A DNA stretch of 64,000 bases, taken from NCBI RefSeq assembly GCF_006345805.1, contig NC_043007.1, positions 66,774,001-66,838,000 of the forward strand, in the 5' to 3' direction. Origin of the DNA: Octopus sinensis. Taxonomy: Eukaryota. The position numbers and the translations under genes are program-made. This document shows positions 15,764 to 62,381 of this stretch, in pieces (position 1 is the first letter of the stretch; each line of letters begins with the position of its first letter). Under the pieces are notes generated by a model. That model did not search any database, was not told the DNA's origin, and worked only from the letters and a program-made list of their open reading frames with translations.

Positions 15764-17806
15764 ATGCCACGTGGATTTTTGGTGAAACGAACAAAAAATG
15801 CTGCGGCATTCTCTTACAGAGTTCGGAATTCCGATGATAGTGACTCTGATCACGAACACATTCAAACAAATTTCGGTTCTCCAGATTCTGGATATTCTCC
15901 AAGTCCGATATCATTGACTCCACGCGAGAGAGATCTCCATGCCTTTGACAGGGACCCGACACAAGGTACCACCCTGCCCTCGTCTCCGTTGCCAAGTTAT
16001 CCGTCCCCACATTACTTTTATGCCTTCGACAGACTGAGCGTTTCTAATTGTTCACCAGTCAACTTGACCCCTGTGAAAAACGAAACCGGAACTGCTGCTC
16101 TTTCCAGTCCTAACAAACGCAGGGGTCCGGCCGAAGCCGAGAAAAAGGTGAAAACGCCCAAGAAACCGAAAGCTTGTCGTAAAATTAATTTCGACGAGGA
16201 CAAGACGTCACCCGTATCGGGTACAATCATCAAAGACATCTCTGATACGGACGAGGAAGGACAAGTTGTGTGCGGAGACATTGACAGTGCCTTTAACTAT
16301 GTAGAGATCACGGCGGAAGCTAAGGCTGAGCTGGAAAAAATCGAGAACAAAATTGGCGACTATGTCTGTCAGCTATGCAAAGAATATTTTGACGATGCCT
16401 TCCAACTGGCTCGCCACAGATGCTCACGCATCGTGCATGTAGAATATCGCTGCCCTGAATGCGACAAAGTTTTCAACTGTCCAGCCAACCTCGCTTCGCA
16501 TCGGCGTTGGCACAAACCGAAAACCGCGTCCGACAAAAAGAACGTCCCCACTCACATACTGCCGGCCAACATCCCGTCGGTTGCTCTCAACAGTAACCAC
16601 AGCAACGGAACAAATGGAGATCCGATGGACGAATCCAGCGACAAATGTGACAGTCCACGAATGCTAACGTCACCTCCTGGCTCGCCGAACAACTACACAG
16701 CTTCCACACATCACCACCAGTACTTCAATTCGAACTCATCACCGTCTCCGTCGTCCGCTTCACCTCCAGCCGTCACCATCAACGACTGTCCGTCGTCCAC
16801 TGTCGAAGAAGGACAATTCCAGTGTGAGATATGTTTCAAAAGGTTCCGCCGTCAAGCCTACCTGAAGAAGCATATTCTTAACCATAACAATGACCGAGCC
16901 AAGCAACAACAACAACAACAACAGCCGCCACAACAACAACAACAACAGCAACAACAGTCAGAGCAGCACCTTTCATTGCAGCAACAACAACAAAGTGAAA
17001 CTAGTCAGCCCTCAACTCACAATCACTTACAGAACCAACCCACCGACTCGCCACCTCATAGTTATTTCCAACACAAACACCAACTCCATCAACACAACAA
17101 TCAAAACCTCACGCAAAACAACGGTAGCAGCAACAACAACAACAACAACGCTAACAATAACAACAGCGACATCAGCAGCAGCAATAACAACAACAACAAT
17201 AACAACAACAACAACAACAATGACAACACAGATTCCAATGGCAACAAAGAGCCGACTTCTTCGCTAAACAGCAATGTAAATACACAAAACGGTGCCTCGA
17301 GTAATAACAGTTCTAGTATGGTGGTCAACGAGAGTAGTAGTGAGAGTATGGACCCCACGACTAGCTGTAGTACTCCGGCTGCAACAAATGGTACCATCAC
17401 TAATGCTACAAGCATTGCAAGCAACGGTAGTAATAGTAGCCTCACGACCACTGACACAACAACCACCAACAGCAGCACCGACACCACTACCACCACCACC
17501 ACTACCAATACCAACACCACCACGACCGGCAACAGTAATAATAACAACAACAGCAACAACAGCAGCAGCAATGGTAACGGAACCACTGCCCACCTATCAT
17601 GCGACCACTGTAATAGCATTTTTACCACAAAAACGGCTCTCGAGAAGCACAGCCGGACGCACAGTGGCGAGGTTTTCACCTGTAAGTACTGCTCAAGTCG
17701 CTTCTATAGTTCTCCAGGTCTTACCAGACACATCAACAAATGCCATCCCTCCGAAAATAGACAGGTCATTCTTTTACAATTGACCCCAGTTAACCGACCT
17801 TGTTGA
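15764..17806 (+). CDS. INSM1: Insulinoma-associated (INSM1/IA-1, nerfin/EGL-46 family) SNAG-domain C2H2 zinc-finger transcriptional repressor, 680 aa, single-exon ORF
   Basis: N-terminal SNAG motif MPRGFLVKR; family motif RKINFDEDKTSPVSG; ZF1-2 YVCQLCKEYFDDAFQLARHRCSRIVHVEYRCPECDKVFNCPANLASHRRWHKP; ZF3 FQCEICFKRFRRQAYLKKH; ZF4 CDHC..HSRTH; ZF5 plus the C-terminus SPGLTRHINKCHPSENRQVILLQ typical of INSM proteins. The symbol marks the family, since invertebrate genes are co-orthologous to INSM1/2. Confidence 0.96.
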   Translation: MPRGFLVKRTKNAAAFSYRVRNSDDSDSDHEHIQTNFGSPDSGYSPSPISLTPRERDLHAFDRDPTQGTTLPSSPLPSYPSPHYFYAFDRLSVSNCSPVNLTPVKNETGTAALSSPNKRRGPAEAEKKVKTPKKPKACRKINFDEDKTSPVSGTIIKDISDTDEEGQVVCGDIDSAFNYVEITAEAKAELEKIENKIGDYVCQLCKEYFDDAFQLARHRCSRIVHVEYRCPECDKVFNCPANLASHRRWHKPKTASDKKNVPTHILPANIPSVALNSNHSNGTNGDPMDESSDKCDSPRMLTSPPGSPNNYTASTHHHQYFNSNSSPSPSSASPPAVTINDCPSSTVEEGQFQCEICFKRFRRQAYLKKHILNHNNDRAKQQQQQQQPPQQQQQQQQQSEQHLSLQQQQQSETSQPSTHNHLQNQPTDSPPHSYFQHKHQLHQHNNQNLTQNNGSSNNNNNNANNNNSDISSSNNNNNNNNNNNNNDNTDSNGNKEPTSSLNSNVNTQNGASSNNSSSMVVNESSSESMDPTTSCSTPAATNGTITNATSIASNGSNSSLTTTDTTTTNSSTDTTTTTTTTNTNTTTTGNSNNNNNSNNSSSNGNGTTAHLSCDHCNSIFTTKTALEKHSRTHSGEVFTCKYCSSRFYSSPGLTRHINKCHPSENRQVILLQLTPVNRPC

Positions 17807-29100: not shown

Positions 29101-30325
29101 CCAGGGTTGGACAAAATAATGGAAACACCTTAAAATTTCAAGCAAATTTATTTTAATATGGAGTAGGACCATCTTTGGCAGTAATTACAGCTTGAATTCT
29201 ACAAGATATGGAGTCGTATAAAGTTTGAATTGGTTTCGAAAGGAATTTTTGTCCATTCTTCAGCTAAAACAGTTTCCAGTTCTTGTAGTGATGATAGTGT
29301 AGAATATTTTCTAAAATGCACCATAAATGTTCAATAATATTGAGATCTGGGGACTGTGGTAGCCAGATAAGATGTTCAACTTCACTAGAATGTTCCTCGT
29401 GCCATTCAGTAACAACTTTAACTGTGTGAATTGGTGCATTATCATCCTGAAAGATTGCGTTTCCCTCCGGAAACAGTTCCGCAAACATAGGATGAATTTG
29501 ATCAGATAAAATACTTAAATAGTCTTAACTATTAATTCTGCCATGAAGGGAAACCATTGGACCGGCAGATTTCCAAGATATAGCCCCCACACACACTAAC
29601 TCGCCCCTAGATCATCACAGATCCTCCTCCATGTTTAACAGTTGGAGGAAGGCAGTCTGGGTTAAATGCTTCTTTTGGCTGTCTCCACACGTATACTCCG
29701 CTGGTGGTCAGAAATAAGGTAAAGGATAACTCGTCCGAGAAAATAACATTCTTCCACTGCTCTAGGGACCAATTCTGTAGGATTTTACTCCACTCTACAC
29801 GCTTTGCAACGTTTGTTTTTGAAAGTAGTGGTTTTCTGATTGCAGCTCCCTGGGTTCTCGAGGTAGTCATTAAGCTTTTCAGTAATTTTAGGAGCTGTAC
29901 TTTTGTGATCCTTTCTAACAATTCACGTAAGAGTCCGACGGTCCCTATCTGAAAGTTTTGGTTTTCTTCCGGAGTTTTGTTTCGACGAGGATGTTTTTCC
30001 CTCTTTCTCAAAGGCTCTCATTACTTTCGAGACAGTACTTCTTGATACACCAAAAATTTCGGCTGTTTTCGTTACGCTAGCACCTGCCATGCGAGCACTA
30101 ACAATTTGACCTCTTTGAAAGTCCGATAGATGTGTCATTTTAATGAATTTTGATTACCTTTCTTTTTCATGATATCTGAAAAGAAACTGTAATTTTAGCA
30201 AAACATATTAAGCAACACTTATAATAAATCAAAAAACATAAAAACAAACTTTTGACGGTTTTATAGATATTACAAAATTATGATGCTATGATGCTAGGTG
30301 TTTCCATTATTTTGTCCAGCCACTG
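29101..30325 (-). mobile_element. Tc1-family (DD34E-type) transposon with frameshifted transposase
   Basis: ~30-bp TIRs (..TGGACAAAATAATGGAAACACCT / AGGTGTTTCCATTATTTTGTCCA..) flanked by TA. ORF fragments MTHLSDFQRGQIV.., WKNVIFSDE, TVKHGGGSVM, FQDDNAPIH, PQSPDLNIIEHLW. Confidence 0.93.
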
Positions 30326-42179: not shown

Positions 42180-42281
42180 GTACAGGATTTGGCTGTACGT
42201 ATTTTAAAATTGCAACGATACAGATTAACATGGCCCCTGCGCAATGATAACACGCAAATTCGTGAAGCGTTCCATATTTTT
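42180..42281 (+). pseudogene. U6 snRNA pseudogene
   Basis: TAAAATTGCAACGATACAG..ATTAACATGGCCCCTGCGCAATGATAACACGCAAATTCGTGAAGCGTTCCATATTTTT matches U6. It has a 5-nt deletion in the ACAGAGA region and the AGC triad is changed to AAC. Confidence 0.9.
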
Positions 42282-45720: not shown

Positions 45721-45789
45721 ACGCACCACACACACACATATATGTATATATGCATGCATGTGTGTGTATATGTGTGTATATGTGATTGT

Positions 45790-45834
45790 CGTGCGCTGAT
45801 GACGGGTCAATACCCAGAAACTGCAGTCCGTGCG
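45790..45834 (+). ncRNA. Minimal type I hammerhead ribozyme with canonical core
   Basis: CGTGCG-CTGATGA-CGGGT-caat-ACCCA-GAAA-CTGCAG-TC-CGTGCG. Stem I has two GU pairs, stem II has a C-A mismatch at its first position, and stem III is palindromic. Confidence 0.75.
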
Positions 45835-45992
45835 TATTACTTAGGTTGACGAGGGAAGGATGACCTCCCTTTGCAAATACCGAAAGGTCACAGAAAATGT
45901 GCCTATAGCCAGCTGGAGGAAATGTTCTCCTGGAGCTACAAGCTAGAGTAACACCCACCCTTAGTGGTTAGCCATATTGGGATGGCAAATAT
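45790..45992 (+). mobile_element. Dispersed copy of the HHR repeat family
   Basis: Colinear similarity to 52646-52850 (TGACCTCCCTT, TAGC..AGG..CTC.TGGAGCTA, GCCATATT...ATGGC) and to the reverse complement of 62248-62381. Confidence 0.7.
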
Positions 45993-46015
45993 ACCTCACA
46001 CACACACACACACAC

Positions 46016-49371: not shown

Positions 49372-50845
49372 CTAGCGGAACCCGTAAACATTTCACGGAA
49401 TTAATGGTAAACCTATTGGGTTATTTCTGAAAACTTTATCCAAAACCCTGAAAGCGTAGTCTGTGTTGTGTTTGTATGGAAAGATTGTCACTCATCTGCT
49501 ACTCATTGAAAAATGTAATTTATACAGAAAATGTAAGCATAAATAAAAGTCGACTTCATTATATTTTTTCTGTAAAAACCTATTCTGATATTAAATGAGT
49601 CAACTTCCGGTACAAATGTTTACAGTTGTACGTCATTTTCAACAAAAAATTTCAATTTGTTACCTGTATGAAGTACATATGTATTTTAACAATTTCTACC
49701 AAATACACTCTCTTTCTTGAGCATAAGAAGTCCTTTTCCCGGGTGACAATAATTTATATGTCAAATTGTTGCACAAGATCTTGCTGTTTTGATAAGGAAA
49801 ATCAGAAAGGTTTGAAATGATTTCATCGACATTTACCTGTACCAAAGAGCACTCTGTTGATAGACAAAATGTTGATCTCATAAATGTCGCGTGGTGGAAA
49901 TAAATGCAAACACCAAACTTTCAATTCATTATTTCGTTTTATTTTTTTCATTTCAATTTGTACATCTGTACTCCCGACTGCGTACAAGCGCATATGTTAA
50001 ACGACGTCCTTTGTTTTATAATCATTATCTGCTGATATCAAAATAAGTAGTACATTTAAAAATAAAAATATTTTCTGGGGTGGGGGACATTTGTGACTCC
50101 AAGGGTCAAAAGGGGTCCTTTGGCCAAAATGGGCTGAGAATCTTTGGCGTACAGTGTTTTTAGTCGATTTAATCACTGTCGTATGTAGACAGTCGAAATA
50201 AATAAATAAATAGACAAAATCCTTTCAGTTTTATAATATTTTCTAACTGAAACACTCAAACAATACACACCAATACACATAAAATATAGACAGTAATAAT
50301 ACACAATTACAACATATAAATGAATATTTTTTTAATGTGAAAATAACTAAAACATATTATGTAAAGCAAATATACGACCATATAGATTAAAAAATATGGT
50401 AAACAGTCGAAATAAATAGACAAAATCCTTTCACTTTTATAATATTATCTACAACCAAAACACTCAACACACACCAATATACATATAAAAAGTATATAGA
50501 AAATAAATAATATACAATTACAACATATACATAAATAATAAATAAAAAATTTGAAAACCACTAATAAATAATCTCTAATTCTAATATACGACCATATAGA
50601 TTTAAAAAGTATGGAAGACTACATACAAAAAACTATGTACATACAACGAATTAGAGAAAAACCCGTATAAACCACCGTTTTTCCAGGTTTGTCCATTTAC
50701 GCGGGAGCTCTGGGCAAAATGCTATAATGCATGACCATCCTTGAGACATAAGTAATGTATGTGTAAAGTTTGGTGAAAATTGGTTGAGAATTGTGTAAAT
50801 GTATGCGTTACGCAATATACACACACATACTGTGATTTATACAGA
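49372..50845 (-). mobile_element. Non-autonomous Helitron
   Basis: Minus strand starts A|TCTGTATAAATC at 50845 and ends CCGTGAA-atg-TTTACGG (hairpin)..GTTCCG-CTAG|T at 49372. TC...hairpin...CTAG inserted between A and T is the Helitron signature. Confidence 0.7.
50188..50615 (+). repeat. Diverged ~215-bp direct duplication inside the Helitron
   Basis: ACAGTCGAAATAAATA..GACAAAATCCTTTCA.TTTTATAATATT at ~50188 and ~50403; both units end AATATACGACCATATAGATT. Confidence 0.8.
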
Positions 50846-51568: not shown

Positions 51569-51613
<45 letters not shown>

Positions 51614-51834
51614 GAAATATTAAAATTACTAAGTCTCTCTAAAAGAGATCACGGCAGCATTCTGGAAAATAAAGTTATCGCCATACTAATATGGATTCTT
51701 ATAAAAATAAGAATAAAGCTGTCCGCTTATTAGCTCCATGAGGCCATCGCCTTAAGTTAGCTATTTGATACCAAACTGTATCCATATAACCTTCGAACAA
51801 GGGAGGTCAGTCGCTCCACACTACTTGATCGACA

Positions 51835-51876
51835 GCTACAGACGCGTTTCGGGGTATTGCCCCTTTTCAATGTAGC
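51835..51876 (-). ncRNA. Minimal type I hammerhead ribozyme, U3:A8 core variant (array copy 1)
   Basis: Exact reverse complement of 52646-52687. Confidence 0.85.
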
Positions 51877-52197
51877 GTAGTCAGACCAGTAGGTGTCGCT
51901 TCCGACAATCTCTGTTCGAAGGTTTTATTTACCTAGTTTCAGTGGAATACATCCACTTGTTTTTCATAAATAGAAATATTAAAATTACTAAGTCTCTCTA
52001 AAAGAGATCACGGCAGCGTTCCTGGAAAATAATAGTTATCGCCATACTAATATGGCATTCTTATAAAAATAAGAATAAAGCTGTCCGCTTATTAGCTCCA
52101 TGAGGCCATCGCCTTAAGTTAGCTATTTGATACACAAACTGTATCCATATAACCTTCGAACAAGGGAGGTCAGTCGCTCCACACTACTTGATCGACA

Positions 52198-52239
52198 GCT
52201 ACAGACGCGTTTCGGGGTATTGCCCCTTTTCAATGTAGC
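52198..52239 (-). ncRNA. Minimal type I hammerhead ribozyme, U3:A8 core variant (array copy 2)
   Basis: Exact reverse complement of 52646-52687, 363 bp from copy 1. Confidence 0.85.
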
Positions 52240-52645
52240 GTAGTCAGACCAGTAGGTGTCGCTTCCGACAATCTCTGTTCGAAGGTTTTATTTACCTAGT
52301 TTCAGTGGAATACATCCACTTGTTTTCAATAATAGAAATATTAAAATTACTAAGTCTCTCTAAAAGAGATCACGGCAGCGTTCCTGGAAAATAATAGTTA
52401 TCGCCATACTAATATGGCATTCTTATAAAAATAAGAATAAAGCTGTCCGCTTATTAGCTCCATGAGGCCATCGCCTTTGGTTAGCTATTTGATACACAAA
52501 CTGTATCCATATAACCTTCTTTTAGAGAGACTTAGTAATTTTAATATTTCTATTATTGAAAACAAGTGGATGTATTCCATTGAAACTAGGTAAATAAAAC
52601 CTTCGAACAGAGATTGTCGGAAGCGACACCTACTGGTCTGACTAC

Positions 52646-52687
52646 GCTACATTGAAAAGGGGCAATACCCCGAAACGCGTCTGTAGC
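52646..52687 (+). ncRNA. Minimal type I hammerhead ribozyme, U3:A8 core variant
   Basis: GCTACA-TTGAAAA-GGGG-caata-CCCC-GAAA-CGCG-TC-TGTAGC gives a 6-bp stem I, 4-bp stem II, palindromic stem III and GUC cleavage triplet (cut after 52681). Confidence 0.85.
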
Positions 52688-52852
52688 TGTCGATCAAGTA
52701 GTGTGGAGCGACTGACCTCCCTTGTTCGAAGGTTATATGGATACAGTTTGTGTATCAAATAGCTAACTTAAGGCGATGGCCTCATGGAGCTAATAAGCGG
52801 ACAGCTTTATTCTTATTTTATAAGAATGCCATATTAGTATGGCGATAACTAT

Positions 52853-52886
<34 letters not shown>

Positions 52887-60582: not shown

Positions 60583-62247
60583 GTGACAATACATATTTGT
60601 GTGTGTATGGATATGTGTACAGCTATAACACAGCAATAACATGCATACACATTGTAGTGGAAATATACGTTTAGTATCGAGTATTGATATGGCTGCGTGT
60701 ATATTATTACAAGAATTCTCACAGAGAAGAAGAATAAATTTAAGAACTATATATTTACTACATAAAAATATATTTTATTTATTGGTCGATGATGGTATAT
60801 AATCAAGCTGTAGAATCTAGTTGAATGAAATAATCTATGCAACAAAGTTCAGAAATAGGTGGTTTTCAGTCATGTGGCGTAAAGAAATAGACGGACATAG
60901 CAATGACGTGAATGGCTCTAAGACTAATCGACTAAGAAGCGAAGAGCAGGGTTACCAAGCTGTTTTTTATTAATGGAACGCTAGACATTCTAGAAACTTC
61001 CAAGAAAAACGCTAAGCTTCTTGAATAATTAAGAATTACTTCTCATGATACAGATGCTTCGAGAAACTTAGTAAAGGGAGGTTACTCTATAAACCTTCTT
61101 GAGATAGATCATTCAACTATTGAGCTAGACTACTAGAGTATATAAGTATATATATGTGTGTATCTTTATATACACAGATACACATATGAAGCTACTCATG
61201 GGATTTCCCTAGTATCCATAAATTTATGAGTAGCATTGGAGAACTTTTCAACAGTCCTTGGCTTGGCTGTAAAAGATATTGCCTGTTCCAAATTAGCTCC
61301 ACAGACACAGAAAATCCAGCAGTGGAACCCCTCCATGATATGATCAGGGCGACGAAACCGTCCAAACGCACACTTGCTGACTTGAGATTTTGCATCGCCG
61401 TATAAGAGAGAACAGGCTATTAGCCGTTCTGTAGGAAATATTCATCTGCTGCCTTCCTTTAGCTAGCAAAGGCATTTTAGTTTCCATTACCCTGTAACTA
61501 TGGCGGAGTGAGTTGTATGATGCAGGCAGATAAAATGTTTTTGAGGTCAGAACTTTTCCTCTTTGGTGACGACCCCTGGTAACACAGAGGAGTGCGCACG
61601 TGTGTGTGTCTGTGCGCGCATGTGTGTGTGCATGTGTGAGTATGTGCGTGTGTGTGCGTGTGTGTGAGAGAGAAGGGGGAGGAGAGTGATCGAAGTTAAA
61701 TAGGCCAATTCTGATTATACAAAGGTAAACAGGAAGCAGGAGCCTGGATGTATTTCATACATCAGAGTATTCCAGATCCTCACTGTGAAGCAGATTCTAC
61801 CTAGGGCCCTCAGATGGTGTTTTTTCCTTCCTATATGGGCTCTTTTTCCTGTTGAAATTCTATTGTTTTGCATTCATTCTTTTGGGAATTTAATTATTTA
61901 ATTTTTTTTTGTAAATTATTGTTATTTTATTGCTTCTGCGTTAGACACCCCCTCCCCCACTTGCTCCTTGTTTTCGTATTGTCTTTTAATTGTGTTCGGT
62001 CCTTGTGGCCAATAAAGTAAAGAACGTCTATATTATTCAACTCGTTCTAGTGTTACGAACTGTTTTGTCCGTATGCTACGCTTACACTAAGGGAGATAAT
62101 AACTGAATGGGCTATATATATGTATATGTATGTATATATATATATATATAATATATATATATATATTATATATAATATATATATTATATATATTATATAT
62201 ATATATATATTATATATATATATGTATATGTATATATATATAGTGAC

Positions 62248-62381
62248 GCATATTTGCCGTTTGAATATGGCTAACCCATAAGGGTGGATGCTACTGTAGT
62301 TTGTAGCCCCAGGAAGATATCTCCTCCAGCTGGCTACAGACACACTATCTGTGTCCTCTCAGTATTGTGAAGGGGAGTCAT
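62248..62381 (-). mobile_element. Truncated copy of the HHR repeat family (3' module only)
   Basis: Reverse complement aligns with 45861-45992 (TAGCCAGCTGGAGGA..TCCTGG.GCTACAA..CCACCCTTA..GGTTAGCCATATT); embedded in (TA)n. Confidence 0.7.

Follow-up and report, generated by a model that had tools for sequence, protein, structure and literature searches.

Features of the locus

The window (the whole stretch of Octopus sinensis DNA that was analysed, 64,000 nt) contains a short hammerhead-bearing element of ~216-218 bases between TG/TA and CA microsatellites, an inverted array of related units, and a third, shorter relative.

45782-45840, plus strand: type I hammerhead motif with three helices and an open stem I.
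45783-46000, plus strand: 5'-truncated copy of a family-A monomer (putative retrozyme), with the last 46 nt before the predicted cut site and 172 nt after it; the 352-nt unit is seen at loci L028 and L029.
45784-45785, plus strand: equivalent of the LINE insertion position, where the 16-18 nt target-site duplication of other copies ends, 11 nt upstream of C3; unoccupied in the window copy.
45829-46000, plus strand: conserved 3' domain of ~175 nt, with a hairpin at 45886-45903, a long hairpin at 45907-45937, a terminal hairpin at 45971-45986 and the first fixed 3' end at ~46000.
51610-52519, minus strand: minus arm of the family-B array, ~2.5 units of 362-363 nt, with U3:A8 cores that begin at 52233 and 51870; the arm stops at the second fixed 3' end (+235).
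52518-52855, plus strand: inverted arm of the family-B array; its U3:A8 hammerhead lies at 52652, and the arm stops at the first fixed 3' end (+175), within a TA microsatellite.
62238-62381, minus strand: third, shorter copy of the 3' domain, belonging to another subfamily, with no hammerhead and lying in a TA microsatellite.

The motif at 45782-45840 displays the type I core C3UGANG8A...GAAA...UH with its three helices and open stem I. Distal stem I (45782-45786/45836-45840) is followed by a 3x1 internal loop and by proximal stem I (45790-45795/45829-45834); the core CUGAUGA occupies 45796-45802, stem II 45803-45816 and GAAA 45817-45820, while the 10.1:11.1 position, usually a G-C pair, is C10.1·A11.1 and is unpaired throughout family A. 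The palindromic stem III, ACUGCAGU, lies at 45820-45827 and the cut is predicted after C45828; ACTGCAGTC spans 45820-45828, and GAAAC is found at 45817. An earlier note on this DNA had described a CUGAUGA core with a CAAU loop (CTGATGA at 45796, CAAT at 45808), a stem I differing from that of the array yet still pairing (6 pairs, two of them G·U), a distinct palindromic stem III and a colinear downstream region (TGACCTCCCTT at 45861, or +33, against +32 in the array; GCCATATT at 45971, or +143, against +147), all of which we recovered.

A strict hammerhead scan of the window returned this motif, three motifs in the array and one weak, chance-like match at 49789; Rfam gave no hammerhead, either for the element alone or among the best 150 of 282 matches listed for the whole window. 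The homology proposed between the element and the array unit was confirmed, since 45790-45992 aligned to 52646-52850 with a score of 295, against 170±16 for dinucleotide shuffles (0 of 2000 as high), and the downstream part alone scored 226 against 137±15 (again 0/2000); the alignment of the hammerhead alone was weaker (6/2000).

A search of the animal's own genome (2.72 Gb) with family A yielded 3528 candidates and 49 matches, the full-length ones being 92-96% identical with the window copy itself excluded. The family-A unit is 352 nt long and is repeated head to tail at locus L029, so that the window element corresponds to the last 46 nt before the cut and the 172 nt after it: a sub-monomer fragment with a single cut site. 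What had been called a solo element is therefore a truncated monomer of a tandem family, and its truncation, its Penelope-type ends and the LINE target site had been overlooked. The copy is 4.2% diverged from its family and differs from the majority at 9 positions, two of them in the hammerhead, where both keep G·U pairs; the changes at 45888 and 45934 disrupt pairs in two downstream helices and are private to this copy. The C·A at 45803/45816 occurs in 42 of 44 family-A records (a count that takes in overlapping loci) and is a family-wide state, not damage. Since it is the natural state of the family, the earlier proposal to assay cleavage with this mismatch "repaired" started from a wrong premise.

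Families A and B and their shared 3' domain

Family B, which forms the array and is a sister of family A, has units of 362-363 nt and gave 1623 candidates, the best copies being 98-99% identical. Homology between the A and B monomers is limited to the hammerhead and the next ~170-175 nt (0 and 1 of 1000 shuffles); over the other 122-133 nt they are not significantly alike (178/1000). Both families consist of tandem non-coding units within the 150-450 bp range, each with a type I hammerhead and no LTR; by the architecture of their genomic copies, A and B are non-LTR retrozymes. The units hold no ORF, hence none combining RT and GIY-YIG as an autonomous Penelope-type element (PLE) would have, and PLE queries gave no match in the window.

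The 3' ends of the copies fall at two places. In family A, 28/40 end at +167-176 and 12/40 at +216-221; in family B, 28/52 end at +172-177, 21/52 at +233-238 and 3 elsewhere, in counts where overlapping loci appear more than once and where the queries favour copies reaching +172. The 5' ends are variable and many insertions carry an inverted arm, with inverted pairs usually having one arm per fixed 3' end; the array in the window is such a pair, its minus arm stopping at +235 (51610) and its plus arm at +175 (52855). The marks of PLE mobilisation are all present: two fixed internal 3' ends, an inverted 5'-truncated arm and microsatellite targets. Among the features reported for PLEs are the tail, an inverted 5'-truncated copy and a preference for (TA)n (PMC8557442), and for an anole PLE the tail is described as two internal RT start sites 3' of the hammerhead, within the protein-binding region (PMC11167929); the 3' ends, inverted arms and microsatellite sites of A and B match these accounts, as far as the accessible text of both papers goes. 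The ~175-nt domain is likely the region where a PLE RT recognises its template and initiates.

We interpret 45783-46000, with a probability of roughly 0.85, as a 5'-truncated genomic copy of a 352-nt hammerhead-bearing tandem family, likely a non-autonomous retrozyme reverse-transcribed by a PLE enzyme, this copy being likely inert. The kind of element is known, and the window copy is a dead-end fragment of it; its variant features are a fixed C·A pair, a mapped 3' domain and dedicated LINE parasites. As a circle, the family-A unit is predicted to fold only weakly better than shuffles (z -1.7), against z -7.0 for family B. In four runs guessed to be RNA, contigs span the family-A unit, and one contig joins unit end to unit start; as such a junction cannot tell RNA, circle and tandem DNA apart, we counted it neither for nor against expression.

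Covariation and core variants in the superfamily

Hammerhead patterns run against the own genome gave 4827 matches against 291 in controls and 6579 against 740, and tighter patterns gave 3739 against 1 and 3778 against 6. The loci fetched held 252 hammerhead-like records, 169 of which had the same downstream domain and grouped into 42 clusters at 88% identity, so that the two diverged subfamilies keeping one structure, as originally suggested, are upheld and extend to these 42 clusters among the 169 sampled records. We analysed 32 complete clusters for covariation, 10/42 being left out as truncated or rearranged; the representatives were chosen by hammerhead pattern and are single, partly decayed copies, and the test combined a motif-anchored alignment with a tree-based null.

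In the all-pairs test (24,531 column pairs) only 10.1:11.1 (E<0.005) and 3:8 (E=0.095) stood out, and no single pair of stem I, of stem II (10.2-10.4) or of the downstream region was significant. Counted by helix on the 32 representatives, compensatory branch events numbered 8.7 in stem II against a null of 0.5 (0/2000), 6.3 in proximal stem I against 1.0 (6/2000) and 5.0 in the inner long hairpin (45913-45932) against 0.7 (1/2000), so stems I and II do covary at helix level. Compensatory change was not significant in distal stem I (210/2000), the outer stem 45907-45937, the small hairpin 45955-45967 and the terminal hairpin (354, 449 and 414 of 2000 for the three downstream ones); these helices are mostly paired and vary little. 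The first downstream hairpin was folded per sequence, outside the tree test. In a structure-blind MAFFT alignment the 20 named pairs were 87% paired, against 34-50% when slid, while RNAalifold on that alignment recovered 7 pairs only. The covariation anticipated by the earlier note is accordingly seen in stem II, in proximal stem I, at the 3:8 pair and in one downstream hairpin, and is not significant in distal stem I and three downstream helices. Its view of the fold as functional is borne out as selection on the fold during the mobile history of the families; activity of the window copy does not follow, given its one cut site, its 4.2% divergence and its private mismatches in two downstream helices.

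Stem III has many sequences and is self-complementary in 33/42 clusters, which fits the expectation for dimeric hammerheads (PMC4209133, in its accessible part), and predicted dimer folds are more stable than two monomers. As regards the core, three close relatives of family A (L207, L203 and L175) have U3:A8, so the core switched within the lineage. By hand count, the first 100 C3:G8 matches include 48 with C·A, against 0 in the first 100 U3:A8 matches, a difference that shared ancestry can explain. Strict coupling between core type and the 10.1:11.1 pair was rejected as an artefact of the search pattern; lists free of that bias include a C3:G8 family with G-C at this position (19 of the first 100, hand count). 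Both U3-A8 cores and weak 10.1:11.1 pairs were already known from published descriptions (PMC4209133; PMC3088659; axolotl Amex2).

The same conservation could be read otherwise: the fold may be kept as a binding or priming signal for the PLE enzyme, self-cleavage being weak or dispensable in family A. Hammerhead mutants of the anole PLE are reported to leave in vitro insertion unaffected, cleavage there needing protein (PMC11167929, accessible text), and family A has C10.1·A11.1 in place of a usually conserved pair and a minimal stem III. Nevertheless, 32/32 representatives (selected by pattern) retain C-G or U-A at the catalytic 3:8 position, stem III changes in sequence yet stays palindromic, and U·U at 10.1:11.1 is known in active natural hammerheads (PMC3088659; axolotl), so that we hold this explanation to be rather unlikely.

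Mobilisation and candidate helpers

For a retrozyme mobilised by a PLE, the route that we infer is the following. Tandem copies would be transcribed, and hammerheads would pair through the palindromic stem III and cut as dimers, releasing monomer RNA that may circularise. The RT/GIY-YIG protein of a PLE would bind the ~175-nt domain 3' of the hammerhead and nick AT-rich or microsatellite DNA, and cDNA synthesis would start at one of two internal sites, ~+173 or else ~+218 in A and +235 in B, with a variable stop. For the window copy the cDNA would have stopped 46 nt past the cut site, so that the surviving part is the part conserved between the families.

Young autonomous PLEs are present in the genome, and two families were examined. 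P1, with 15,173 candidates, has an ORF of 778 aa that is GIY-YIG-like in its C-terminal region and gave no Pfam match over its full length; P2 has a 748-aa RT + GIY-YIG ORF with a CxxC linker of the kind known from Neptune and Nematis. Both families possess a hammerhead and two 3' ends of their own, and the 175-nt domain was found beside neither hammerhead, by eye or by profile search. Neither of these two is supported as direct parent, and the helper PLE is accordingly a putative one. A 5.3-kb tandem on C23, considered as the autonomous parent, was also discarded, as it has no LINE ORF match and its sole PLE ORF match (P1, L032) lies >2 kb downstream of the last hammerhead copy.

The P1 hammerhead-like motif (L093-L127) has a very long stem II and often CCGAAGA for CUGAAGA, its 3' ends lying ~155 nt apart. 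At L198 (C1:4405500-4412000) a young autonomous P2 copy carries a U3:A8 hammerhead directly after a pyrimidine-rich tract and ACAG, which resembles the intron end described beside the Drosophila Penelope hammerhead (PMC4209133, accessible part).

That the element is a pLTR fragment of an autonomous PLE, and not an independent non-coding retrozyme, appears very improbable. Type I hammerheads occur in PLE pLTRs, and PLE copies are mostly single and 5'-truncated (PMC4209133); Xenopus retrozymes are related to pLTRs (10.64898/2026.07.22.740005), according to the accessible portions of these sources. In the octopus, however, longer copies run upstream into the preceding 352-nt unit and not into an ORF; neither PLE ORF query matched immediately 5' of a hammerhead of family A or B, the matches at L011, L032, L066, L067 and L087 being separate neighbours or untraced; and the sole long upstream sequence shared among copies is a LINE inserted with a target-site duplication.

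LINEs inserted beside the hammerhead core

That shared sequence, a 5.5-kb element upstream of two family-A loci (L002 and L017), had been a candidate for the 3' end of a PLE and turned out to be a LINE: its ORF1 has a CCHC-like motif at the end (by eye), and its ORF2 comprises endonuclease, RT and zf-RVT. At L218 the LINE is flanked by a 17-nt duplication ending 11 nt upstream of C3, equivalent to 45784|45785 in the window. A search with the LINE 3' end gave 256 candidates and 40 matches, of which 30 were fetched and 29 were readable, L246 being left out as its alignment stopped short of the 3' end. Hammerhead units of several A-type subfamilies follow in 22/29 cases (two being the seed loci), another LINE after the same duplicated target in 5/29 (3 by BLAST, 2 by eye), and the 5' end of a U2 gene in 1/29; one is unassigned. 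A full-length LINE is present in 17/20 extended loci, with a perfect 16-18 nt duplication in 13/17.

In 105 pairs the LINEs are 96-100% alike and their flanks 72-98%; the greater divergence of the flanks indicates that young LINEs entered older repeats in independent insertions. The upstream target copy at L255, L267 and L269 matches another subfamily, not the local target, and at L267 (1120-1138, 6490-6683; C3:19.73 Mb) the LINE sits at the 5' end of an intact U2 gene, a 14-nt U2 duplication being followed by 17 nt of retrozyme-type target. From these foreign copies and the U2 site, the LINE RNA would seem to carry target sequence at the 5' terminus.

A sister LINE, with 81% identity over the C-terminal part of ORF2, targets family B 16 nt upstream of U3. 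Of its ends, 23/25 lead into family B, and in the other 2/25 the same duplicated target comes next and then a second element; in A and B the LINE sites thus lie close together in register without coinciding. APE and RT, a fixed target with duplication and more than 20% of flanks of one repeat type mark these two related APE-RT LINEs as target-specific ones, likely of Tx1 type; a protein search returned nothing named Tx1 among the 120 matches listed, the second-best being a hypothetical Argonauta protein.

The idea that the repeat itself is a SINE-like partner or the 3' tail of an APE-RT LINE, and was mobilised by it, would account for the hammerhead units after LINE 3' ends (22/29 and 23/25), and we consider it scarcely credible: the unit encloses the LINE, upstream of which lies retrozyme sequence or another LINE end, and the 16-18 nt target is duplicated, the contrast in likeness between LINEs and flanks (96-100% vs 72-98%) largely refutes a LINE tail, a LINE ORF and LINE end lie directly upstream in only 3/169 hammerhead records (L002, L017 and L162) plus L197 with the sister LINE, and LINE-free copies show PLE-type ends.

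With PLE-driven retrozymes retained as the main reading, a three-tier system may be imagined, which we put forward as speculation and think improbable as a whole: retrozymes with a structured 3' domain and a tuned hammerhead, its C·A pair fixed, would be driven by PLEs, and Tx1-like LINEs would have diversified alongside their subfamilies and would exploit them beyond simple landing, carrying ~17 nt of retrozyme target at the RNA 5' end into new sites and having their read-through 3' end trimmed by the intact hammerhead ~60 nt downstream. If true, a retrotransposon would be borrowing the ribozyme of another element.

Other AATAAAG-tailed elements adjoin further hammerhead subfamilies at a similar position (L006/L007/L024, L064, L063 and L162), one AATAAAG-tailed element having no LINE ORF and being possibly a SINE; this suggests further LINE or SINE families with a hammerhead-unit target. 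The 5' end of the window copy (45782-45785) coincides with the LINE insertion site, which may be chance given how copies were selected, and several further short family-A copies begin within ~10 nt of that position.

Comparison with known systems

The octopus families resemble the metazoan non-LTR retrozymes (Cervera and de la Pena 2020, PMC7229834; Li, Clavereau and Pollet 2026, 10.64898/2026.07.22.740005), as described in the accessible parts of both studies, in their tandem non-coding units (350-365 nt here, 350-390 in mussel, 330/350 in axolotl), in having one type I hammerhead per unit with a short palindromic stem III, in their monomer, dimer and multimer copies and in the co-occurrence of PLEs. 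Compared with what those parts report, octopus family A has a family-wide C10.1·A11.1 where axolotl (Amex2) has U·U, the octopus superfamily mixes C3:G8 and U3:A8 cores, and there is a structured 3' domain with two fixed ends, inverted arms and LINE targeting. RNA circles and cleavage have been shown for the elements of those studies and are predictions for the octopus families; in Xenopus, 8/9 predicted retrozyme dimers were reported uncleaved in vitro (10.64898/2026.07.22.740005, accessible part).

With the hammerheads and tail of PLE pLTRs (PMC4209133, PMC8557442 and PMC11167929, each in its accessible part) they share the U3-A8 variant, the palindromic stem III, two internal 3' ends, the inverted 5'-truncated arm and AT-rich or microsatellite targets. 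Unlike the pLTRs described there, the units have no ORF, their helices are of canonical size and not of the minimal long-stem-II motif, and the 3' ends are spaced ~45 nt (A) or 60 nt (B) apart, against 30-40 bp in PLEs.

Target-specific LINEs of the Tx1 clade include Tx1 (into Tx1D), Tx1-Mar (into Mariner-N4_AMi) and Keno (U2 snRNA) (PMC4494074). The octopus LINEs are like those that the accessible text describes in their APE-RT make-up, a fixed site in another mobile repeat, the target-site duplication and tandem insertions, one octopus insertion being at U2. They differ from these three in that the target is a ribozyme-bearing retroelement, hit beside its catalytic core, and that two LINE families have different retrozyme targets.

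As the class of element is known, the hammerhead alone is ordinary. In the literature searched, which left Repbase and subscription journals outside, we found no description of the octopus or cephalopod families A and B, no paper joining retrozyme and Tx1, and no LINE landing beside the ribozyme core of another retroelement. The ~175-nt structured region ends exactly at PLE-type start sites and offers a minimal candidate cis-signal for the still unproven mobilisation of retrozymes by PLEs, and the recurrent C·A at the most conserved position of stem II provides a natural variant with an activity open to measurement.

Other features of the window

A single-exon ORF of 680 aa at 15764-17803 (plus strand), starting MPRGFLVKR, contains C2H2 zinc fingers and presumably resembles an INSM1/nerfin-type SNAG transcription factor. 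The Rfam match to U6 snRNA at 42180-42281 (plus strand, 79.5 bits) lacks 5 nt in the conserved ACAGAGA region and is likely a pseudogene. By eye, 29610-30017 (minus strand) is a Tc1/mariner-like transposase fragment; it has no Pfam match.
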